64,000 nt of DNA. It comes from Patescibacteria group bacterium. Lineage in GTDB: Bacteria; Patescibacteriota; Minisyncoccia; Phycocordibacterales; DATDWN01. This document shows, one piece after another, positions 10,693 to 25,395 of the stretch. How positions within the stretch are numbered: position 1 is the stretch's first letter; every line of letters starts with the position of its first letter. The notes below the pieces were generated by a model that made no database searches, had not been told where the DNA came from, and saw only the letters and a program-made list of their open reading frames with translations. The stretch covers positions 111,398-175,397 of the forward strand of contig JAZKAN010000001.1 of assembly GCA_040389125.1 (NCBI GenBank). Reading direction: 5' to 3'. Both the position numbers and the translations under genes were made by a program.

Positions 10693-10761
10693 TATTATAC
10701 CACATACATATGTATACGCATCAAATCTTAAACTCTATCACACCACCATCTTCTCAACTAT

Positions 10762-10785: not shown

Positions 10786-10813
10786 TATAAATATGGAAGA
10801 AAGTCGATTTGCC

Positions 10814-10857
10814 CGTCTACTAAGCCCACAAATTCCCTTTTACGGCCTTAGTAGGCG
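10814..10857. repeat. 13-bp stem / 17-nt loop hairpin in the left junction region
   Basis: cgtctactaagcc (10814-10826) pairs with ggccttagtaggcg (10844-10857), with one bulge and one G-T pair. Confidence 0.5.
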
Positions 10858-10902
10858 AGCAAGCCATTATTTGTAAATTTCAAGGATCGGGCTAAGGACA
10901 GT

Positions 10903-10933
10903 ATAAACAACCGCTTGTTCAATAGCAAGCGGT
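10903..10933 (-). terminator. Rho-independent terminator after the small basic ORF / integrase unit
   Basis: Minus strand reads ACCGCUUG-cuauugaa-CAAGCGGU followed by UGUUUAU. The stem starts at the stop codon. Confidence 0.6.
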
Positions 10934-11061
10934 CATTTGTCCCCTTTTTTCTTTCTCTTTTTTCCACTCAAAATACCCATCTTTTTGAAGTGGTCGACTC
11001 CGTGTTTTTTCTTTGTTGCAACCCCTCCTTTTTTACCTAGTTGTTGCGCAGCTTTATTCAT
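10933..11061 (-). CDS. Small basic protein, 42 aa (KGG-like lysine/glycine-rich)
   Basis: Below the ORF-track size cutoff. My translation is MNKAAQQLGKKGGVATKKKHGVDHFKKMGILSGKKRKKKGDK*. It lies 44 nt downstream of the integrase stop on the same strand and is followed by a terminator. Confidence 0.55.
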   Translation of the reverse strand: MNKAAQQLGKKGGVATKKKHGVDHFKKMGILSGKKRKKKGDK

Positions 11062-11105: not shown

Positions 11106-12023
11106 TTATGCACCCCTGAATTTGCGGTATCTCTTTTCTGCCTGTTTACCGTACATCATGGTATAGACCATAGAGCTCTCAATGCATGAGTGTCCAAGGA
11201 TGTTTGTAACGTCCGAGTTGGACCCACCCTTTTCAATAATATTTCGTCCCATGTAATGCCTCATTGAGTGAGCATTCATATTCTTTTCAAGGCCAGCTTT
11301 ATTGGAATAGCCTCTGAGCATCTCACAGACACCGCTTGGCTTGAATCTGTATCCCCTAGTTTTATTTGCTCCTGAGTTGTGGATCGAAATAAACAATGCG
11401 TTTGGATCCCGAAGGACATTTCCTCTTTTGAATCGTTCCCTTCTTTCTATCCATTTGTTGATCGCAATGCTCGTTTCCTTTGTCCAGAATATTTCTCGCA
11501 AAGGACGGCGAGTTTTTGCTTTCTCAGTTTTAATTAATGCTTTGTTATTTACAAGGTCGAGATCATCCATATCAAGTGCGAGGATCTCTCCATTTCGTGC
11601 GCCGGTATCCCAGAGTAATCTGATGATCGCTTCGTTTCTTACATTTCTTGGATCGGTATTTTGCGGAATGATATTGAGCAGCTTCTTGTATTCTTCAGGA
11701 GTAGCGACACGAGGGATCTTATATTCCTTCTGCGGTATCGGTATAAGGTTTTCATTGATAACTCTCCAACCTCTGAGATTGCAGAATTCAAAAAACTTTT
11801 TAAGCGCCATACACTTTGAAATAAAGCTGTTGTGCGCCCACCCGATCTCTCTCATGAGATTCAGGTATTCCATGACATTATTTAAACTCACGTCTTCGAT
11901 GTGGGGATTTCTCAAAAACAAACAAAAAAGACGAAGGTCTTTGTCATTACCCCGAGTAGTAGTTCCGTTTATCTTGAACGTTCGCCAATTGGTGAATTCG
12001 TCGATTGCGTCTTTGAATAGCAT
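11106..12023 (-). CDS. int: Tyrosine recombinase / phage integrase (XerC/D-like, 305 aa)
   Basis: SAM-like N-terminal domain. Catalytic signature: LWDTGARNGEILAL (Arg), HSMRHYMG (H-x-x-R), LGHSCIESSMVYTMM (His...Tyr). Confidence 0.93.
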   Translation of the reverse strand: MLFKDAIDEFTNWRTFKINGTTTRGNDKDLRLFCLFLRNPHIEDVSLNNVMEYLNLMREIGWAHNSFISKCMALKKFFEFCNLRGWRVINENLIPIPQKEYKIPRVATPEEYKKLLNIIPQNTDPRNVRNEAIIRLLWDTGARNGEILALDMDDLDLVNNKALIKTEKAKTRRPLREIFWTKETSIAINKWIERRERFKRGNVLRDPNALFISIHNSGANKTRGYRFKPSGVCEMLRGYSNKAGLEKNMNAHSMRHYMGRNIIEKGGSNSDVTNILGHSCIESSMVYTMMYGKQAEKRYRKFRGA

Positions 12024-12275
12024 AAATTAGTCAACTGAAAAGCCCACCTGATGCTAGTCAAAGTGGACTTTTAGTGACTTTCTGCCTATCAATGAAATTA
12101 ATCGGCGGTACGGTCATTCCCAAGCTTGGGATACATACTCTTGCGAGTATGCACTATTATCTTACTCTATTCCCTTGGGAGATAGCAAGATAACGCTTGA
12201 GCAAAGTCCATTGCTAGCATCCTGACCTAGTTACGGTCGGATCCCTTTCGGGACAATGGATTTATATTCAGTTGT
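12024..12275 (-). ncRNA. Structured 5' leader / candidate ncRNA upstream of integrase
   Basis: No ORF longer than 17 codons. A 19-bp long-range helix (12203-12221 with 12050-12071) encloses a multi-hairpin junction. GNRA loops GAAA (12241-12254) and GCAA (12134-12151) are present, with a promoter upstream. Family not recognised. Confidence 0.55.
12209..12258 (-). repeat. Copy 1 of a 50-nt module shared with 45116-45165
   Basis: The plus strand reads cattgctagcatc-N18-gatccctttcgggacaatg. The partner copy has the same 13-mer, the same 18-nt spacing and 18/19 identity in the second block. Confidence 0.85.
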
Positions 12276-12281
12276 CACTAC

Positions 12282-12310
12282 ATCCTAGTGTAGTGCCGTT
12301 CTATTGTCAA
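12282..12310 (-). promoter_or_regulatory. Putative sigma-70-type promoter for the integrase leader
   Basis: Minus strand TTGACA (12310-12305), 17-nt spacer, TAGGAT (12287-12282). Confidence 0.4.
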
Positions 12311-12391
12311 GAAGGACAATCTATGGTGTGAAGCAAAAACAAGTAAAATATTGAAAAAGTCAATAAAAATAAGGGTATTTTGGACGGTTAT

Positions 12392-12426
12392 ATAAAAAGT
12401 CGCACCACTTTTGAGGCGGTGCGACT
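12392..12426 (-). terminator. Rho-independent terminator of the PRTase gene
   Basis: 9-bp stem agtcgcacc/ggtgcgact (12398-12406 / 12418-12426), followed on the minus strand by UUUUU. Confidence 0.7.
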
Positions 12427-12450
12427 GAATTTGCGATCGAAGAATACGGG

Positions 12451-13467
12451 TTATTTCAATCTTTCCTGCACCTTTTGCAGGAAACTGACCACCTCAATAT
12501 CAAAAGGAGGAAGATCCTCATGGAAGCCCAGTACGATCGGGATTGAGACCCTCGGGCAGGCTTTTATTAGCTCCCCGACCGTAATTGAACGCCCCTTGTG
12601 TCTTTCAACGCGGCTGAAAATCTCGATACTTGTTTCCAGACAGAACTGGGACAAGTCCCGAGCTCCGTCAGAAGGCATGGTCGCCCATCTTTCCATTTTA
12701 CCGAACGGCAGAATGTAAGGATAAGCACAGCTCTCACCAGTAGCCGTCTGCACGGGCAGGAAATTTGACGAGGATTGCTCGCCAAGAACACGTCCGCAAT
12801 TCGGTACGAACGGAATGAGATCGTGATCAGGGATCCAATCGACTAAGTTTTCGAGAGGATCAACAATCACCAACTCTCCATCAAACACCTCTTTGAGAAC
12901 GGAGAATGCCCGAGTGCAGCAAAAGCCAATGATGACAGCTGTCACTTTCAGACCCAAGTCGCTCAGATTGTTTAGAACGAAGCGAAGAGTTCCGCCAGTG
13001 AAGGCGCCATCTTCAATCAAGACGACTGATCGGCCAGCGATCTTTTCAGCGAGATCCTTGAACTGCTCGTCCAAGGTTTTGAATCCCGGTCTGGGACCGT
13101 GTCCCATCATTTCACCGTCTGTGTTGAACAAACGATTAATGTTGAGGACAAGTCCCTCGCTCTTTGGATTTGAATCAGCAATCTCTTGGCACGTACTAAG
13201 CACCACTTGATTGCTCATGTCTTGGATGCGAAGCTCGACTTGTTTCCAAATCTTAAGCCTCACTCTGCTCATTCCGATCGTGTGTATGTTCACGTCAGGC
13301 AAAGCTTTTTGTAGCTTCTCTAACAGGATCCGGTGAAAGTTCCTGAAGAGTGGATCGTTCTGATGCGGAACCTTTACAGCTCCAGATCGGAACACTTGAA
13401 GACGACTGGCAACATCATAGGTAACCACGTAGGTTCCACGATGAGCCGATGAACGGACTTTTTTCAT
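12451..13467 (-). CDS. Type I phosphoribosyltransferase-domain protein (338 aa), subfamily unknown
   Basis: PRPP-binding loop SVVLIEDGAFTGGTL (nt 12985-13029). Strong SD aaggagg 5 nt before the ATG. The flanking N- and C-terminal regions are not recognisable. Confidence 0.85.
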   Translation of the reverse strand: MKKVRSSAHRGTYVVTYDVASRLQVFRSGAVKVPHQNDPLFRNFHRILLEKLQKALPDVNIHTIGMSRVRLKIWKQVELRIQDMSNQVVLSTCQEIADSNPKSEGLVLNINRLFNTDGEMMGHGPRPGFKTLDEQFKDLAEKIAGRSVVLIEDGAFTGGTLRFVLNNLSDLGLKVTAVIIGFCCTRAFSVLKEVFDGELVIVDPLENLVDWIPDHDLIPFVPNCGRVLGEQSSSNFLPVQTATGESCAYPYILPFGKMERWATMPSDGARDLSQFCLETSIEIFSRVERHKGRSITVGELIKACPRVSIPIVLGFHEDLPPFDIEVVSFLQKVQERLK

Positions 13468-14001: not shown

Positions 14002-14007
14002 TTGAAC

Positions 14008-14283
14008 ATGCCAAAAATTGAAATCGATCCATTCGAGGATCTCAGGAAAAATGGACATATTTGGGAAGGTGACAAAGCTACCCTGTGGTACCACGAAAAA
14101 CTCGATGGATCTTTCAGTCTGGTTGTTCTCTACAACTTCGAAGATAAAAAACGGCGACTTTTTTTGGAAGTAAACAATCTAAAACGTAAAGTTGAATTTA
14201 AGAACGAAGATATTTCGGACGATCTCTATACTCATATCCTCATGGAAATTGAGGCGTTCAAAGGAATTTCAAATGCAAAATAA
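14008..14283 (+). CDS. Hypothetical protein (91 aa)
   Basis: The ORF-track start 14002 is TTG; the first ATG is at 14008 (MPKIEIDPFEDL...). No recognisable motif. One of only three plus-strand genes in the mobile region. Confidence 0.55.
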   Translation: MPKIEIDPFEDLRKNGHIWEGDKATLWYHEKLDGSFSLVVLYNFEDKKRRLFLEVNNLKRKVEFKNEDISDDLYTHILMEIEAFKGISNAK

Positions 14284-15428: not shown

Positions 15429-16223
15429 TTAATTTGTGTCTACAGCATTTGCAGCCTTTCTATAGCTACAGTGATCGCATTTGTGACTTGCTTCAGGCAT
15501 GTCGCCATCGAGGCACTGTTTGATCTCATGGAGAACACCCCCAACCCATGAGTCATCACCAGTGTAAGGAATCAAGTCGATATCAAAATCTAGTTTTGCA
15601 TCAAAAGCTTCCCGATCTGTTTTTCCGTTGCAATATACAAAGTAGCCGGTGTCGGAAACTTTAAAGCCAAGCTTACGAAGGAGCCATTGATACATCTCCA
15701 TCTGTCGTTTGTATCCGATCTGCCAGTCCGCATCAAGGGTAACCTTTGATGGTTTGCTTGTAGATTTGTAATCCACCACAGTGATCTCGCCCTCATTGTT
15801 GACCCAGAGATCGTCTACAGCACCAGTCATGATGAAATTTGTCGGTGTGTGATGATATTGAACACCCTTGAAATTCTCACGCCATTCCCCCATTTTCTCA
15901 TGTGCAAATGGGACCATATCAAGCCCGTACGCCTTCATTAGCGGATGTGGGGTCTTCTTAGCCCTGTGGATGTCGAATTCCTTCTTTAGGAGGGCATCTA
16001 CGGCTGAATTCAGGGCAAACGGAAAGCCCGGTACCTGCCCTACGCCAAGCCGACGATCCATATAAAAGCACTTCGGGCAGTTCATGTAGAGCTCAATCTT
16101 GGATCGGGACAATTTGAAAGGATCCGAGCTTTCTGGATCGTAGAGGTTTCTTGTTCGGTTGGCGTTATAATATTCCGACATATATTTAGTATATTGGTCA
16201 AATTTGGCTGTATAGTCAAGCAA
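15429..16223 (-). CDS. Cas4-like PD-(D/E)XK nuclease with Cys cluster
   Basis: CPKCFY near the N-terminus; GAVDDL...VVDYKST...YKRQMEMYQ nuclease core; C-terminal CDHCSY. Start is TTG at 16223, 3 nt after the upstream stop (alternative ATG 16181). Confidence 0.82.
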   Translation of the reverse strand: MLDYTAKFDQYTKYMSEYYNANRTRNLYDPESSDPFKLSRSKIELYMNCPKCFYMDRRLGVGQVPGFPFALNSAVDALLKKEFDIHRAKKTPHPLMKAYGLDMVPFAHEKMGEWRENFKGVQYHHTPTNFIMTGAVDDLWVNNEGEITVVDYKSTSKPSKVTLDADWQIGYKRQMEMYQWLLRKLGFKVSDTGYFVYCNGKTDREAFDAKLDFDIDLIPYTGDDSWVGGVLHEIKQCLDGDMPEASHKCDHCSYRKAANAVDTN

Positions 16224-16226
16224 GCC

Positions 16227-18515
16227 CTACAACTTCTTCAGGAGCTCTAGCGAATCCCTTAAAATGGTTTTAATATCACCAGAAGAATTTATATCTTTAC
16301 TCGCTTCATTTCCCTTATGATGTGGCTCATGTAGGTCAGGAAGAATTCTCTTGAATTCGTCGACCAACGTAGAATCCATGAGTTTTTCAGTGAGTAAAAT
16401 ATCCACGTATCCCCCTAGACCTTTATGCATTGCAATGGCTTCTTTTAACTGTGGATAGTATTTTGCCTCGACAGCATGCTCAAGAATTATTCGGCAATCT
16501 TCATGCGCCTTTGGATCTATAAGTGTATTAGAGGTGAGGTGTTTTTCAATTCTATCCAATGCTTCAAATGCTTCCGGTTTAAAAAATCTTTCGTATATAT
16601 CTAGTCTTGCAAAAGTGCTTTGATTGACTCCGTCACTGTTCACACCGTCTGGAATAATTTCCAAATAAAGGACACCGTCGCCGAATTCTTTACTGACACG
16701 TTTTAGGAACCCTGATTCATGAGTTAATAAGATTGTTTGAGCTGGCCTATCACCTGCTTTATTTTTTATTGAAGCCAAAATTCTTGCGGTCGCTCTTTTC
16801 CTTTCCGAGTCAAAGCTTGAGATTGGATCATCAACAACAATAAGTGCTTCTTTCAGATCCTTGTTGTTATATAAAATGGCTACAAAAAATGCGAAAGCAA
16901 GAGAGCTTTTGTCTCCTTCGCTTAATGTATTTTTGAGTTGTGGTTTGTCGTCACTCAAATTTGAGACTTCAACTTTATGCTTACCAAAGAACATAAGATC
17001 AAAACCACAGAATATTGAGCCAGATTTTCTAAGATCTGTATGCTCTGATAAGTTTTCCACCTTAAAATCTGCGCCTATTTTAGCTAGGGTATCGTTGATT
17101 GAGGTTTGGTAAACGCCGAATGTTTGCTGTGAATAGTCAGACAGTTCTTTTATAGCCGCATCTCTTTCCTTCTTTAGTTTTTTTGTGGAATCTTCGTTTG
17201 AGTTGTATCCTAATACAAATTTTTGAGCGTTTTCTGAAAATCTATTTTTTAAAACTTCTAGTTCTTTTATAGCCTTTTCGATATCTGCTGGTTTTTTACG
17301 GTCAACTTTTGCAAGAAAAGACTGGATCGATGCATTGTAGTTTTTGATTTGGATTTCAAGAACTTCTACACTTTCTTGAATTGCCTCAAGCTTCTTAGTT
17401 GGAACAAGGTAATTCAGATCCTGCTTCTTTTTCTCAAGCTCTGATTCAAGTGCTTTTTTGTGAACCGCTAATTCTGATGAATCAATGCTCTCTATGAGAC
17501 TCTTAAACGCTTTTTTATCGTTAAGAATTTCATTCCAATCTTCGGCTTCTTTTTTTAGAGAAGCAAGAGCTGCGACTGCATCCCATCGTGTAAATTCACC
17601 AATGGAAGTCGAGATTTCTTTTTGAAGCTTGTTATAGGAATCATCAAAATATGTTTTGTACGCACTGATCAATGAATCGACACTTGATGTATCTTGGCCA
17701 CAAAAAGGACATGTCTCATCTTTAATTTGAGAGTTTCCTGAACTCAGAAAATCAAGAGCGTCATCAGGATCAGCAAGATGCTGAGTCGCATGCTCTTTTA
17801 TCTTTTTTTCCGCAGCGTCATGAGCTGTGCCGATCTTCTTTTTTAAAATGGTGTGGAAACCTTCGAGATCAAGGGACAAGAGTGTTAACTCTGCCGGTTT
17901 GTTTACCTGACTGGCAAACTGCAATTCTTTTTGCTTGTCGGTAATTTTTTGATCTATATCTGGATCTTCTTTTAATAAAAGGAATTTTTCTAAGGTATAA
18001 ACCGAAGATGCGGTTGTACCGGAATACTTGAGTACAAATTCTTTCTTTTTTTGTTCGCAGTCTTTAATTTTTCCGACGATAGTGCTGACTGCTTCTGCAT
18101 AAGCTTTGCCTTCGGCTCCAACAACTACTCTATGAAGATTGGTTCTATGTTCATCGCTAATCTTTTCTCCATCGAATACATTTTCTGATATAAATTTTGT
18201 ATCAAAAATAAGGATCTTGTCGTTTGGACCGATATTCCATTTTTTATTTTCAAATTTTGCCTTAAGTGGTACATTCCCATGTTCAAAATCAATGTCTATT
18301 TTCTTTGAAGCACTGCTTCCTAAAGTCTTTTTACCGATCAATAGATTGTTATTGCCAGTTTGAATCGATCGTAAAATACTCGTGAAGGTACTTTTTCCAT
18401 TACCATTGTTCGCATAAATTATTGTTGTTGGTGCAAACTCAAGACCCGCAATCTTTTTCTTGCAGTCTGAGAATTTTCCAATATTCGTGATTTCATGGAT
18501 CCTTTTGAGAAACAT
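16227..18515 (-). CDS. RloC/PrrC-like ABC/AAA_13 ATPase with zinc hook and C-terminal HEPN-like nuclease motif
   Basis: Walker A ANNGNGKST. Long coiled-coil insert with CPFC (nt 17700-17711). Signature LSEGDKS, Walker B LIVVDDP, LLTHE. C-terminal RIILEH (R-x3-E-H, nt 16476-16493). Confidence 0.82.
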   Translation of the reverse strand: MFLKRIHEITNIGKFSDCKKKIAGLEFAPTTIIYANNGNGKSTFTSILRSIQTGNNNLLIGKKTLGSSASKKIDIDFEHGNVPLKAKFENKKWNIGPNDKILIFDTKFISENVFDGEKISDEHRTNLHRVVVGAEGKAYAEAVSTIVGKIKDCEQKKKEFVLKYSGTTASSVYTLEKFLLLKEDPDIDQKITDKQKELQFASQVNKPAELTLLSLDLEGFHTILKKKIGTAHDAAEKKIKEHATQHLADPDDALDFLSSGNSQIKDETCPFCGQDTSSVDSLISAYKTYFDDSYNKLQKEISTSIGEFTRWDAVAALASLKKEAEDWNEILNDKKAFKSLIESIDSSELAVHKKALESELEKKKQDLNYLVPTKKLEAIQESVEVLEIQIKNYNASIQSFLAKVDRKKPADIEKAIKELEVLKNRFSENAQKFVLGYNSNEDSTKKLKKERDAAIKELSDYSQQTFGVYQTSINDTLAKIGADFKVENLSEHTDLRKSGSIFCGFDLMFFGKHKVEVSNLSDDKPQLKNTLSEGDKSSLAFAFFVAILYNNKDLKEALIVVDDPISSFDSERKRATARILASIKNKAGDRPAQTILLTHESGFLKRVSKEFGDGVLYLEIIPDGVNSDGVNQSTFARLDIYERFFKPEAFEALDRIEKHLTSNTLIDPKAHEDCRIILEHAVEAKYYPQLKEAIAMHKGLGGYVDILLTEKLMDSTLVDEFKRILPDLHEPHHKGNEASKDINSSGDIKTILRDSLELLKKL

Positions 18516-18664
18516 ATTTGTATAAATCTAAAAAGTACGGTAATCATGGATACGACAGGGTAAAAACTTTTAATAACATACCACGAATTCAGCCTTTTAT
18601 AAAGCCCCAAAAGCGTAAGAAAGACTATGATAAAAAACGTTTTTAAGTTAAAATAAGGAAGCAC

Positions 18665-19687
18665 ATGCGATATTACGGTTGTAAAACTAAATTGCTCGAT
18701 TACATTGAAGATGTAGTAACTACTTTACCCGTAAAAGAAGGAGCCATTTTTTTTGATCTCTTCAGTGGCACCACAGCTGTGGGTCAACATTTTAAAAGGC
18801 TAGGTCGCTACACAATCTACTCGAACGACTTCCTTGAGTTTGCTTACTCTCTCGCACGAACAAATATTGAAACTAATTCGATTCCAAAATTCAAAAAGTT
18901 AGATTTAAAAGTAGATGTTATTGAATATTTAAATAATCTTAAAGGCAAGGTTGGATTTATAACTAAGAATTATGCTCCCCATGGCGAAAATAAGCGCCAA
19001 TATCTGTCTGTAGAAAATGCCAAAAAAGTTGATGCAATTCGTGAGCAAATTGAAAAATGGAAAGAAGCAAAAGTTATATCTGAGACCGAATACTACTATC
19101 TCTTAACAAGTCTTATAAATGCAGTGAGTCTCGTGGCTAATGTAACTGGAACATATGCTGCGTTTTTGAAGAGTTGGGATAGACGAGCTCTTAAAACTAT
19201 GAAGTTGGAACATGGCGAGATCATGGACAACAAGAAAGAAAATAAAGCTTTCCGAGCTGACGCAAATGATCTTGTTGGAATGCATAAGGTTGATGTTCTT
19301 TATTTAGATCCCCCATATAACGCTCGTCAGTTTGCATCAAATTATTTTTTCCTTGAGTTGATTGCTGAAGGATGGTTTAAAAAAATACCTGAAATTTATG
19401 GTAGTGCCGGAATGAGACCGTATCAGGATCAGAAATCAAACTATTCCATTTCTCGTAAAGCTGCCGATGCTCTATCGGATCTTATTGCAAAAGCTAAAGC
19501 AAAATATATTCTCCTCAGTTACAACGATGAAGGGATTATCCCGATACCAGTATTAAAAAAGATTTTGGGTACACGTGGAGAAGTAAAAGAATATACGAAA
19601 GAGCATAAAAGATACCGTGCAATCAATCAGGACGGATCAAGAATTATTACTAAGGAACACTTGTTTCTACTAACTGTAAAGAAATAA
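18665..19687 (+). CDS. D12-class (Dam-like) N6-adenine DNA methyltransferase
   Basis: RYYGCKTKLL, FDLFSGTTAVG (motif I), LYLDPPYN (motif IV). SD aaggaag before the ATG. Confidence 0.92.
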   Translation: MRYYGCKTKLLDYIEDVVTTLPVKEGAIFFDLFSGTTAVGQHFKRLGRYTIYSNDFLEFAYSLARTNIETNSIPKFKKLDLKVDVIEYLNNLKGKVGFITKNYAPHGENKRQYLSVENAKKVDAIREQIEKWKEAKVISETEYYYLLTSLINAVSLVANVTGTYAAFLKSWDRRALKTMKLEHGEIMDNKKENKAFRADANDLVGMHKVDVLYLDPPYNARQFASNYFFLELIAEGWFKKIPEIYGSAGMRPYQDQKSNYSISRKAADALSDLIAKAKAKYILLSYNDEGIIPIPVLKKILGTRGEVKEYTKEHKRYRAINQDGSRIITKEHLFLLTVKK

Positions 19688-19688
19688 T

Positions 19689-20498
19689 ATGGCTGAAAAG
19701 ATGAACAATTTTAATGGTAAAGAGTGGTTACAAAATTCTTTTAGTATTTGGAGAGATGTCAGCAAAACGTCTGAAGAAAGAAAATTGAAGCACCCTGCAA
19801 TGTTTCCTCAACAACTAGTTGAGAAGCTTATAAAAATATACACCAAGGATTCCGGTGAAGTTATTCTTGATCCATTCCTTGGTATTGGCTCTACCTTGAA
19901 GGCTGCGCACAATCTCGGAAAGAGAGGTATCGGTTTTGATTTAAACAAAGACTACTGCAAAATTGCAAAAGGTAGGGTAACAAATCATGAAGCTGACGAA
20001 AATTTTGATAAAAAAATAAAGAGATTTGAGCCAGAAATTTATTGTGACGATTCTAGAAACATCTTAAAGCATATAAAGCCTAACTCAGTTGATCTAGTTG
20101 TTACATCTCCGCCCTACTGGGATATTTTAAACATGAAAAGAACGGCCGACAAAGGTGATCAGCGAAATTATTCAAGTTCAAAAAAAGACCTTGGAAATAT
20201 CGACAACTACGAGGCTTTCTTACAAGATTTGAAGTCTGTTTATACTGAGGTATATAAGGCTCTAAAGCCAAACAAGCGATGCTGTTGTGTGGTTATGGAT
20301 ATTCGTAAAAAAGACAAGTTCTATCCCCTTCACGAAGACCAGACACGCATAATGAGGGAGATTGGTTTCGAACTTGAAGAGTATGTAATCTGGGACCGTC
20401 AGAAGGAATACAACAACATGAAAACTCTCGGATATCCTTGGGTCTTCAGATTTAACAAAGTTCACGAATTTATTTGTATATACTGGAAGCGAGCTTAG
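19689..20498 (+). CDS. N4/N6 DNA methyltransferase with motif order X-I before IV
   Basis: HPAMFPQQLVEKLIKIYTKDSGEVILDPFLGIGST precedes DLVVTSPPYWD. Starts 2 nt after the upstream stop. Confidence 0.9.
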   Translation: MAEKMNNFNGKEWLQNSFSIWRDVSKTSEERKLKHPAMFPQQLVEKLIKIYTKDSGEVILDPFLGIGSTLKAAHNLGKRGIGFDLNKDYCKIAKGRVTNHEADENFDKKIKRFEPEIYCDDSRNILKHIKPNSVDLVVTSPPYWDILNMKRTADKGDQRNYSSSKKDLGNIDNYEAFLQDLKSVYTEVYKALKPNKRCCCVVMDIRKKDKFYPLHEDQTRIMREIGFELEEYVIWDRQKEYNNMKTLGYPWVFRFNKVHEFICIYWKRA

Positions 20499-24270: not shown

Positions 24271-25395
24271 TTAAACGTTAAATGAATAAAGCGTGCCTGA
24301 GTTTCCAGTCGATCCTGTGGCACCCGTAGCTCCGGCTCCCCCACCGGCAGAAGGAGATCCGCTATTTCCCCCTGTGCCACCGGCACCACCAGACAAGGAA
24401 TATGTGAGCGTTCCAGTCACTGTTTCGTAAACAAATACTCCCGATCCACCATTACCGCCTGCACCGCCACCACCACCGCCACCTGCGCCACCGACTGAAC
24501 CAGTGGCTCCTGCGGCATTACCACCATTACCGCCATTTCCACCAACACCCCCTATAAATTCAAAAATGCTTCCGCTTCCGCTCATTACAATATTTTTTGC
24601 AGCGACGAAGAAGTTGCCTGCATGTGATCCAGATCCACCACCACTACCACCAGCAGCACCATAGTTCCATTGTGGTTGTCCAGTGTTGAATCCACCCCCA
24701 CCACCGCCCCCACCGCCAGAACCGCTACCTGCATTCGCTTCGTAAGGCGTACCTACGCCAAGCACAAAGTCCACCATTAATTCGGCGTTTACAATATTGC
24801 GAGGCTTTGTAGTCGCACCTGTTGCGGTTCCACCTGAACCACTACCACCTGCGCCACCGCCACCGTAATTGGTAGCATTGCCACCGTTTCCACCTGCTCC
24901 ACCGTTTGCTCCATTACTGCCGATACACGATGATTTTGAGTCGCCAGTTGTGCCGGTTCCACCACCTGCACCCGCACCTCCGTTACCACCTCCACCCCCA
25001 CTGCTTGCGCCATTTTTTCCTGAACCTGACCCTTTTAAGGTTCCATCACTTACACCAGAAGCTCCTGCTCCACCTGATACGGCATTATTTCCTGATCCAT
25101 TATTAGAACTACCACCGGTATTTCCACCACTACCATTGTTTCCCGATCTGCCAATTTTTCCGGTACCTTGCTGAGTGAGGGTTTCTTTAACGTGAATTTT
25201 GTATCCTGCAGGGTTGAGTACACATCCAGTTTGAATAATGAGATTGTTGTAATACATATCTCGAGACAATCCTGTGTTGCTCGAAATTGTTACGTCACCG
25301 TCGGACCCGTCGCCAAATAGAAAAGCTCTAACTTCTACAAAGTTTGCGTTGAGATCTGATGCGAGAACTGTATCGCCTGAATTCCAAGTTTTCAT
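24271..25395 (-). CDS. Glycine-rich tail fibre-like protein
   Basis: N-terminal DTVLASDLNANF fibre-like start, then long GGxGGxG repeats. Position between tail and lysis genes. Confidence 0.72.
   Translation of the reverse strand: MKTWNSGDTVLASDLNANFVEVRAFLFGDGSDGDVTISSNTGLSRDMYYNNLIIQTGCVLNPAGYKIHVKETLTQQGTGKIGRSGNNGSGGNTGGSSNNGSGNNAVSGGAGASGVSDGTLKGSGSGKNGASSGGGGGNGGAGAGGGTGTTGDSKSSCIGSNGANGGAGGNGGNATNYGGGGAGGSGSGGTATGATTKPRNIVNAELMVDFVLGVGTPYEANAGSGSGGGGGGGGGFNTGQPQWNYGAAGGSGGGSGSHAGNFFVAAKNIVMSGSGSIFEFIGGVGGNGGNGGNAAGATGSVGGAGGGGGGGAGGNGGSGVFVYETVTGTLTYSLSGGAGGTGGNSGSPSAGGGAGATGATGSTGNSGTLYSFNV

Follow-up and report, generated by a model that had tools for sequence, protein, structure and literature searches.

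The integrase gene and its leader region

The subject of this study is a leader of about 250 nucleotides (nt) that lies on the minus strand, 5' of the AUG of a tyrosine integrase gene, in a 64,000-nt stretch of DNA from a Patescibacteria group bacterium (contig JAZKAN010000001.1, assembly GCA_040389125.1). This whole stretch is called the window here, and all positions are counted from its first letter. The integrase gene (11106..12023, minus strand) encodes a Xer-like protein of 305 amino acids (aa) without an arm-binding domain, which matches PF00589 (E 9e-26) and integrase families of PHROGs. The leader had been singled out in an earlier note made from the letters of the window, and every element listed there was located at the coordinates that were given. 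The comparison of related sequences suggests that this RNA, which can fold in two ways, is most likely an on/off switch for making the enzyme by which a phage is inserted or removed.

A promoter-like sequence, TTGACA-17-TAGGAT, was found at 12310-12282 of the minus strand by a scan for promoter-like sites. A strong terminator of the upstream phosphoribosyltransferase-like (PRTase-like) gene, with a T tail, was found on the same strand at 12426-12398 by a terminator scan, and the order of the two, promoter after terminator, is the one described in the earlier note. The TTGACA hexamer, the 17-nt spacing and the TAnnnT pattern are unchanged in 42 of the 42 aligned relatives, and the predicted start of transcription, about 7 nt downstream of the −10 hexamer, would be the first base of the outer helix P1 described below. 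In the leader of locus L101 (related loci are numbered with the prefix L), which belongs to class II, the distance from the −10 hexamer to AACUGAAUA is the same as in the window. The −10 hexamer is surrounded by a palindrome, P0 (CACUACA-CUAGGA-UGUAGUG, 12276-12295, minus strand), the helix of which is 97.6% paired with 2 double-change pairs; covariation of the arms takes the forms AU/CG and CG/UA/UG, with U-G on the sense strand among them. P0 is confined to the lineage of the window, and class II leaders lack it. It may serve as an operator, extrude as a cruciform or form a hairpin in read-through RNA, and its position is similar to that of difSL, which lies immediately upstream of xerS, at the xerS promoter (PMC1914069). 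A promoter scan inside the leader gave no internal promoter-like site, and in a scan of both strands of the leader for open reading frames (ORFs), the only one that reached 40 aa was an antisense ORF with its tail in the leader, ending at 12030.

The intergenic region 12311-12430 is conserved throughout in relatives, and the upstream terminator shows compensatory changes. The region contains a conserved box, CAAAAWACCCTTATTTTAATTGACTTTTT, which includes a second −35-like box, TTGACT, at 12360-12355; a conserved CCATAGATT stands directly ahead of the TTGACA box. The region might hold a second promoter or sites for protein binding.

Two mutually exclusive folds of a conserved RNA

The 258-nt stretch from just after the −10 hexamer to the AUG has a minimum free energy of −93.7 kcal/mol, compared with −60.4 ± 4.8 kcal/mol in 200 dinucleotide shuffles (z −6.98, 0 of 200 shuffles); the opposite strand folds more weakly (z −5.3). 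Related loci were fetched from metagenomes (32), from GTDB species genomes (75) and from IMG/VR (26), and searches were made with nhmmer and with a 53-position covariance model of the 5' domain, R1, not with a full-length model. Matches to the leader profile lie directly upstream of the integrase gene in about 50 loci, and relatives of the downstream protein number in the hundreds in Patescibacteria metagenomes. When RNAalifold was applied to an alignment of 42 leader sequences (A3), five elements were recovered, each with compensatory changes: P1, a helix P2 (CCAUU/GGUGG), the pairing GAUGCUAN/NUAGCAUC (in which GC, CG and AU occur 15, 14 and 13 times), a GNRA hairpin and the hairpin UCCCA-AGCU-UGGGA. 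In the nested fold, called state B below, 92.8% of the cells of A3 are paired, and 26 pairs are double-changed, as against 16.6 ± 1.9 in shuffles (0 of 500). The covariation score of this fold is 0.217, and at most 0.063 when the 3' partners are slid by 1-3 columns. The covariation of the alternative fold, state A, is also far above the shuffled and slid controls in A3. The helices are kept through compensatory changes in about 60 related loci, and the earlier proposal of a folded functional RNA is borne out by the folding energy and by covariation above the controls.

Because of the G-U pairs and the GNRA loops (GAAA, GCAA and GNRA variants), the signal is that of a minus-strand RNA; R1 scores the minus strand at 61.7 bits and the plus strand at 11.6 bits. 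The earlier note had recognised no known RNA class in the leader, and the database searches agree with it. A search of the whole 64-kb window against Rfam 15 gave zero matches at gathering scores. At E<=10, four chance-level matches only were obtained in 11900-12500, none of them in 12055-12311, and no match was obtained in 12024-12310. ARAGORN found no tRNA and no tmRNA in the whole window, and the leader RNA is not described in the literature searched (structured RNAs of the candidate phyla radiation (CPR), RNA-guided tyrosine recombinases, riboswitch candidates, xerDC, Patescibacteria Xer/dif and the autoregulation of P2 int). These results support the conclusion that the leader is a folded, conserved, functional RNA which matches no catalogued family.

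The leader is enclosed by P1, in which CAACUGAA pairs with UUCAGUUG (12274-12267 / 12039-12032; 99% paired). Variants of P1 in relatives are CG/UG/UA and GU/GC/AU, and the helix can be formed in both states. The 5' part of the RNA contains a three-way-junction module (12207..12260; alone −23.2 kcal/mol, z −4.0; 61.7 bits with R1). Its closing helix is made up of strand a, UCCAUUG (12260-12254), on the 5' side and strand a', CAAUGGA (12213-12207), on the 3' side. The arms of the junction are the GNRA-capped hairpin hp1, CCC-GAAA-GGG (12253-12242), and hp2, the region of the GACC/GGUC hairpin (12242-12219). Junction strand b, GAUGCUAG (12221-12214), is single-stranded in state A, and strand c, UGGACUUU (12203..12210), overlaps a' by 4 nt. 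The central domain (12076..12193) forms in both states, and its size and content vary by lineage. In the window it holds a variable hairpin (12193-12157), a GNRA hairpin with the loop GCAA (12152-12133), the UCCCA-AGCU-UGGGA hairpin (12131-12118) and hairpin hp3 (12115-12076). The 3' part is hairpin T, GUCACUAAAAGUCCAC, loop UUUGACUAGCAUCAG, GUGGGCUUUUCAGUUGAC (12030..12078; alone −21.8 kcal/mol, z −5.6), which in A3 is 88% paired with 4 double-change pairs. Strand c', AAAGUCCA (12071-12064), belongs to the 5' strand of T; strand b', CUAGCAUC (12057-12050), lies within the T loop; and P2', GGUGG (12048-12044), is in the 3' strand. The U tract of T (12041-12038) is 15 nt ahead of the AUG. All these parts are on the minus strand. 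The hairpins GUCCC-GAAA-GGGAU (12254-12241) and GACC/GGUC (12240-12221), and the first three hairpins of the central domain, had already been pointed out in the earlier note, and all of them are present.

State A consists of the three-way junction closed by a:a' together with hairpin T, and state B consists of P2 (the CCAUU of strand a with P2'), b:b' and c:c'. The two states are mutually exclusive, because strand a is needed for both a:a' and P2, because c' is used by c:c' as well as by the 5' strand of T, and because b pairs with b' inside the T loop. A helix of 19 bp between 12221-12203 and 12071-12050 had been drawn in the earlier note. The pairing stands, but it is not a single helix: b:b' and c:c' are two 8-bp helices with an asymmetric internal loop, CAA / CUUUGA, between them.

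Both folds are followed by matched changes in relatives. Of 14 diverse leaders, 13 have a strand a that can pair with a' as well as with the 3' strand of T. The matched changes between strand a and T are CCAUU/GGUGG, CCGUUG/CGGCGG, CCAUCG/CGGUGG and CCAUUG/CGAUGG, and the closing helix a:a' co-varies as CAUUG/CAAUG, CAUCG/CGAUG, CGUUG/CAACG and CGCUG/CAGCG (partly by eye). The sequence of b:b' is wholly different among lineages with complementarity always kept, and the place of b' is constant, in the T loop some 25 nt ahead of the AUG. Examples, also collected partly by eye, are GAUGCUAG/CUAGCAUC, UGAGGCAAA/UUUGCCUCG, GGAUGCGAC/GUCGCAUCC, GAUACGAG/CUCGUAUC, CCAAAGGAA/UUCCUUUGG and AAUUCAAC/GUUGAAUU. 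In constrained folding of the full leader, state B has −92.2 kcal/mol and state A −89.9 kcal/mol; a transcript truncated at the U tract has −83.5 kcal/mol in state B and −82.4 kcal/mol in state A. The energy gap between the states is about 1-2 kcal/mol. The leader is bistable, being able to take two alternative shapes. This bistability was absent from the earlier account, as were P1, the second copy of the junction module (45114-45167) and the prophage context.

A stand-alone junction module and the prophage

The leader profile and the covariance model found exactly one extra copy of leader sequence in the window, on the same strand. It is a stand-alone three-way junction at 45114..45167 (minus strand; 59.8 bits; alone −17.8 kcal/mol, z −2.9), which sits between a 121-aa ORF and an early phage ORF of about 93 aa (44837..45118, minus strand). 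The AUG of the early ORF (45118-45116) is inside the 3' strand of the closing helix, as the AUG of CAAUG. This copy is not a recent duplication, because its hp2 differs in sequence yet still pairs. Seven more stand-alone copies were found (L008, L108, L113, L114, L118, L111/L144/L151 and L120), and every stand-alone copy directly precedes the same conserved phage ORF, which is about 90 aa long and has its AUG in the closing helix. The junction module is autonomous: it is coupled to a terminator-like hairpin at the integrase gene (int) and to putative hiding of the start codon at the early gene.

The early ORF belongs to a conserved family of about 200 members, all named 'hypothetical'. Nothing significant was found for it in Pfam, NCBIfam, PHROGs, a PDB sequence search, GenBank phages, or AlphaFold2 modelling followed by Foldseek. 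The AlphaFold2 model is of medium confidence (pLDDT 64.5), and the top Foldseek matches, to MazE, AbrB and C68 swapped-hairpin proteins, have E >1 and are not significant. A fold like that of AbrB, MazE or SymE is faintly hinted at, the likeness to SymE being an impression from the sequence pattern only. Locus L101 (DBDS01000006.1) has an integrase 47% identical to that of the window, a class II leader and the b:b' pair GAGGCAAA/UUUGCCUC. A protein identical to the early ORF product of the window, P0121, may perhaps come from one genome with the L101 module, in which case that genome would carry two such phage modules with orthogonal b:b' pairs.

The window carries a prophage of about 35 kb (10725-45715), inserted in the 3' end of ychF. 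The attR site (10725-10750, minus strand), about 360 nt downstream of the integrase gene, is a copy of the ychF 3' end (DGGVIEFKI*), and its partner attL (45715-45690, minus strand) is the end of ychF with the 26-nt GATGGCGATGTGATTGAGTTTAGGAT. This 26-nt repeat has just 2 matches in the window, where 0 are expected by chance, and attL and attR share a 7-bp core, GAGTTTA. In several relatives the attR copy keeps its frame and a stop codon that differs in each, so that attR is taken to be a phage-borne replacement of the gene end. At L008, an attP-like junction, GAAGATGGTAGTGTGAT-AGAGTTTAAGAT-ATAACAACACCATCTTC, has 17-bp inverted arms, as in an intact attP. A complete tailed-phage gene set occupies 22-45.6 kb (Sak4-like protein, replication protein O, methylases, terminase, portal, S78 protease, capsid, tape measure and amidase), with no recombinase among those genes. 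The order in the prophage is attL, early genes, structural genes, lysis genes, accessory island, a divergent 93-aa ORF, a TrpR-like gene, the PRTase-like gene, leader, int, a KGG-like ORF and attR.

Other genomes and viral contigs show the same association. In L008, L003, L111/L144 and L151, the left end of the phage follows 0.5-1.3 kb after the integrase gene, in the order orf121, junction module, early ORF, Sak4, RepO. In IMG/VR, 25 contigs of 19-60 kb encode the integrase family; the gene is often terminal or stands before the Sak4/RepO replication genes, and an amidase gene or the 93-aa ORF lies just upstream of it. A junction module is found 130-250 nt upstream of int in at least 11 viral loci, and a complete CPR chromosome has holin, amidase, leader and int in that order. 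The att repeats and the IMG/VR contigs agree with the label 'integrase' that the earlier note had given to the gene. Behind near-identical leaders and upstream genes (L080-L096, L042-L050) there are three int alleles, whose proteins share about 90, 56 and 46% identity with that of the window. DNA homology ends about 60 nt into the int gene in the 46% group and about 440 nt into it in the 56% group, a pattern suggestive of mosaic exchange in which the leader is the conserved anchor. At L017 (1916-2500), an IS200/IS605-type Y1 transposase of 143 aa, with CCCCGCCCGTAAGGGYGGGG hairpins at its flanks, is inserted after about codon 16 of int.

There were initial grounds for a housekeeping Xer recombinase, since the protein has more than 50% identity over many CPR classes and the order TrpR-like gene, PRTase-like gene, leader and gene is conserved. 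Its best NCBIfam matches are XerA/C/D, and they are below every XerA/C/D/S cut-off. The housekeeping role was rejected in view of the repeats at the prophage ends, the attP-like junction at L008, the viral contigs and the GC skew, which stays negative throughout the locus with no sign change, where dif would be expected at a skew switch or the terminus. The insertion in int of L017 also speaks against it. An inverted repeat, 10969-10986 / 12365-12382, was considered as the ends of an element and rejected, as one arm lies within the KGG-like ORF. A PyrR-like role of the PRTase-like gene was also rejected: the match to the PRPP motif is at chance level, and the gene is absent from other leader-bearing lineages.

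Several other features of the prophage were noted. The 93-aa ORF upstream of the leader (14002-14283, plus strand) matches no family and is divergent from the block of TrpR-like gene, PRTase-like gene, leader and int. It is 47-99% identical and directly upstream of leader and int in several lineages and viral contigs without the TrpR-like and PRTase-like genes, and it is a candidate regulator or directionality factor. The KGG-like ORF between int and attR (10933-11061, minus strand) encodes 42 aa, is rich in Lys and Gly, has its own promoter-like site and terminator hairpin, and is conserved in relatives. Between this ORF and attR there is an imperfect hairpin or inverted repeat with arms of about 24 nt (10809-10862, minus strand). 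It is conserved in L008, with a compensatory change from C-G to U-A, and a similar hairpin is found in L111; it may serve as an arm-type site or as an RNA element. The low-GC (0.37) island at 15429-20498, between the lysis genes and the lysogeny module, encodes a PD-(D/E)XK nuclease, an AAA_13 ATPase, and D12 and N6/N4 methyltransferases, and is probably a phage-carried defence or restriction-modification cargo. Dense CCACC/CCGCC repeats with a period of 9 nt (24359-25008) lie within a 374-aa ORF (24271-25395, minus strand) and suggest a Gly-rich, collagen-like tail-fibre protein. At L092 (232-1000), a portal fragment (82% identical) abuts or overlaps a C-terminal integrase fragment, which could be a rearranged prophage remnant or a misassembly.

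Proposed control of integrase expression and comparison with known systems

A GC-rich stem followed by a U-rich run is the last element of the leader, 4-20 nt before the AUG, in all lineages examined. In the window this terminator-like element is AAAAGUCCAC...GUGGGCUUUU (12073-12038). In class II, T is a textbook terminator, for example CCCGUCG-AUUUGCCU-CGGCGGG-UUUUGUG, with a 7-bp GC stem, an 8-nt loop and UUUU. In state B, the strands and the loop of T are occupied by a conserved antiterminator pairing (P2, c:c' and b:b'), which is a hallmark of attenuators. The AUG follows just 15 nt after the U tract, too little space for int to have its own promoter, and the promoter scan gave no site inside the leader, so that integrase would be made only via read-through. 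Almost no Shine-Dalgarno sequences occur in this genome (all predicted starts in the window), and the regions 5' of the starts are A/U-rich; control by RNA structure is plausible in a genome of this kind. Tight and conditional expression is expected, because the regulated gene is a phage integrase. As a separate observation, a TATAAT-like box stands 6-10 nt before the ATG of several genes (e.g. 10692, 61604), which suggests leaderless mRNAs.

We consider the leader to be most likely a cis-acting, bistable transcription attenuator of the integrase mRNA of a temperate Patescibacteria phage, an assignment held with somewhat better than even confidence. The earlier suggestion of a cis-regulator of the integrase thereby gains weight, as the conserved exclusive folds and the terminator-like hairpin 15 nt before the AUG are what such a regulator may be predicted to have. 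On the best reading, the junction is the decision module, and locking it would turn the integrase off. We infer termination at T, the ON/OFF direction, and the existence and nature of an effector.

Under the attenuation mechanism that we propose, transcription would begin about 7 nt past the conserved −10 hexamer, and the 5' junction would fold first, with a:a' sequestering strand a and the first bases of strand c. If the junction persists, whether through a locking factor or through slow strand exchange, T would fold and the transcript would end before int (OFF). If the junction is open, P2, c:c' and b:b' would capture the strands and the loop of T, and the polymerase would enter int (ON). 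A trans-acting factor that stabilises or opens the junction would decide the outcome. As the junction before the early gene would hide the AUG of that gene, one signal or stabilising factor could govern, and repress, both genes. The effector is more likely a protein, or an RNA-RNA or kinetic mechanism, than a metabolite; the integrase, the divergent 93-aa ORF, the TrpR-like protein and the early AbrB/SymE-like protein are candidates.

Several points weigh against attenuation. The start site, termination at T and read-through are predictions, and the effector is postulated only. In the window the T loop has 15 nt, a generic terminator scan did not flag T, and the lower stem of T pairs bases past the U tract, which would suit a role in translation or stability as well. 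P1 is possible in both states, so that the region near the AUG is alike in both folds. The central domain of 60-130 nt, with its GNRA and invariant AGCU loops, exceeds the needs of a simple attenuator, and b:b' could be a tertiary kissing contact that coexists with T. Two further candidates for control at the leader were tried and rejected. A leader peptide starting at the AUG of a' would differ in frame and length among relatives, and several lineages are without that AUG (by eye). Sequestration of a Shine-Dalgarno sequence by CCAUU/GGUGG is at odds with the 21 nt between this element and the AUG and with the lack of Shine-Dalgarno sequences in the genome.

T might instead occlude the initiation region of int, or the compact fold might protect the 5' end of the mRNA. 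Such a translational or stability element is unlikely, though it deserves serious attention: starts in this genome are without Shine-Dalgarno sequences, T extends to a few nt from the AUG in all lineages (6-8 nt here), its lower stem includes bases past the U tract, and the stand-alone module clearly acts at an AUG. It is opposed by the conservation of GC stem and U tract as a terminator-like unit, with textbook cases in class II. Moreover, switching would alter the accessibility of the AUG little, because P1 covers the same bases in both states. The 240-nt or so of RNA that would be released at T could also act in trans, its b' loop or strand b kissing the junction of the early transcript, or the reverse; such a scheme, attractive for the perfect match in the window, would be like the RNA immunity of P4 (CI RNA) and P1/P7 (c4 RNA). 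There are two copies of the module in the same prophage, the b of the early copy in the window (GAUGCUAG) is fully complementary to the leader b' loop, a terminator-like hairpin ends the leader, and the RNA is more elaborate than a simple attenuator requires. However, early b matches leader b' in only two of four prophages (the window and L118/L111, not L008 and L111b), which is near chance, an 8-bp contact is short, and many leaders are on contigs where no stand-alone copy is seen; this trans-acting role is accordingly doubtful. A broader proposal, which we regard as rather unlikely, is that after termination the leader serves as a stable phage RNA in an RNA-based circuit of lysis/lysogeny or of integration/excision, or as a cofactor of the integrase. 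The second junction module, across attP, would be its partner in the circuit. Possible forms of the circuit are b:b' kissing in trans with the early transcript, or a shared RNA-binding regulator (the AbrB/SymE-like early protein or the 93-aa ORF). In the most extreme version of the proposal, an RNA cofactor would give directionality to an integrase without an arm-binding domain.

The option of a ligand-responsive leader, raised in the earlier note, is weakened. In a metabolite- or ion-sensing riboswitch, the three-way junction would be the aptamer. One sensor does serve two platforms here, a terminator and AUG sequestration, as with true aptamers, and the GNRA-capped hp1 is invariant. Nevertheless, a small-metabolite pocket is unlikely, because strand b, which is unpaired in the junction, is not conserved between lineages and merely co-varies freely with b', and because L122 is without hp2. 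Only the helices and the hp1 GNRA loop are conserved, with no conserved pocket, and an integrase and a small early protein suggest no metabolite, which makes a riboswitch highly improbable. A bridge-like RNA, acting as cofactor or guide of the recombinase, or a site at the DNA level (dif/att, cruciform), is hardly to be expected. For it speak the tight linkage of a complex RNA to a small Xer-like integrase without an arm-binding domain, and P0, which overlaps the promoter in a position like that of difSL by xerS (PMC1914069). The longest run complementary to the att core or arms is, however, 8 nt, which does not exceed the 8-10 nt typical of shuffles. The leader has no other match in the window apart from the second copy of its 5' module, and its variable loops do not track att. 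The crossover site is not in the leader but at the ychF 3' end, 360 nt past int and 1.3 kb away. The folding signal, with its G-U pairs and GNRA loops, belongs to one strand, and the GC skew shows no sign change. A guide or bridge role and a DNA-site role are thus largely refuted for the window, and with them the suggestion in the earlier note of a recombination-associated, bridge-like RNA.

If the leader is an attenuator as we favour, its interest lies first in its target, for neither Rfam 15 nor the literature searched offers a structured RNA family that controls a tyrosine integrase. The RNA is large, shows strong covariation and is widespread in (pro)phages of Patescibacteria, ultra-small hosts whose regulatory biology is almost unknown. 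It offers a natural example of a modular RNA switch, in which one junction is joined either to a terminator or to start-codon sequestration in genomes without Shine-Dalgarno initiation. Together with the int family, covariance model R1 gives a handle for finding temperate CPR phages and their attachment sites, and an entry to the control of lysogeny.

Among known systems, lambda int/sib retroregulation is likewise a case of phage RNA structure that makes integrase conditional, beside int-attP. The sib element lies 3' of int, across attP, and is one RNase III hairpin, whereas the leader is a 250-nt multi-domain 5' element with two alternative folds. P4 CI RNA (seqA/B/C) and the c4 RNA of P1/P7 use repeated short complementary boxes, with premature termination or hiding of start sites. 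In contrast, b/b' of the leader is mainly intramolecular, and there is no sequence or Rfam similarity to these RNAs. The bridge (seek) RNAs of IS110/IS1111 insertion sequences (IS) resemble the leader as structured RNAs encoded directly upstream of a recombinase gene. They differ in that the recombinase here is a PF00589 tyrosine integrase and not a DEDD enzyme, that the element is a 35-kb prophage and not an IS, and that complementarity of the loops to donor or target DNA is missing. STAXI, a motif of tandem pseudoknot repeats that may be single-stranded DNA, lies near genes for Ssb, topoisomerase, antirestriction proteins and XerDC-integrase (PMC2864571). It is also a structured motif by integrase-type genes in mobile DNA, but the Rfam scan, which included STAXI, gave no match here.

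With the trp/pyr attenuators, the T-box and the riboswitch platforms, the leader shares exclusive helices, a:a' as anti-antiterminator, and a GC stem with a U tract before the ORF. The b:b' pairing is comparable to the L5-L13 kissing loop of the cobalamin riboswitch, in that a sensor strand pairs with the loop of the regulatory hairpin and co-varies freely. The leader differs from attenuators and T-boxes in having no Rfam match, no T-box or specifier, no conserved in-frame leader peptide and no conserved ligand pocket. As to T-box hallmarks in particular, there is no Rfam T-box match, and the downstream gene is an integrase and not aminoacyl-tRNA-related. It differs from attenuators and riboswitches in its target, a phage integrase, and in the reuse of the 5' module to hide an AUG. 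The leader is therefore a new RNA family with a familiar regulatory logic; what is unusual is its size, the reuse of its sensor, its target gene and its host group.

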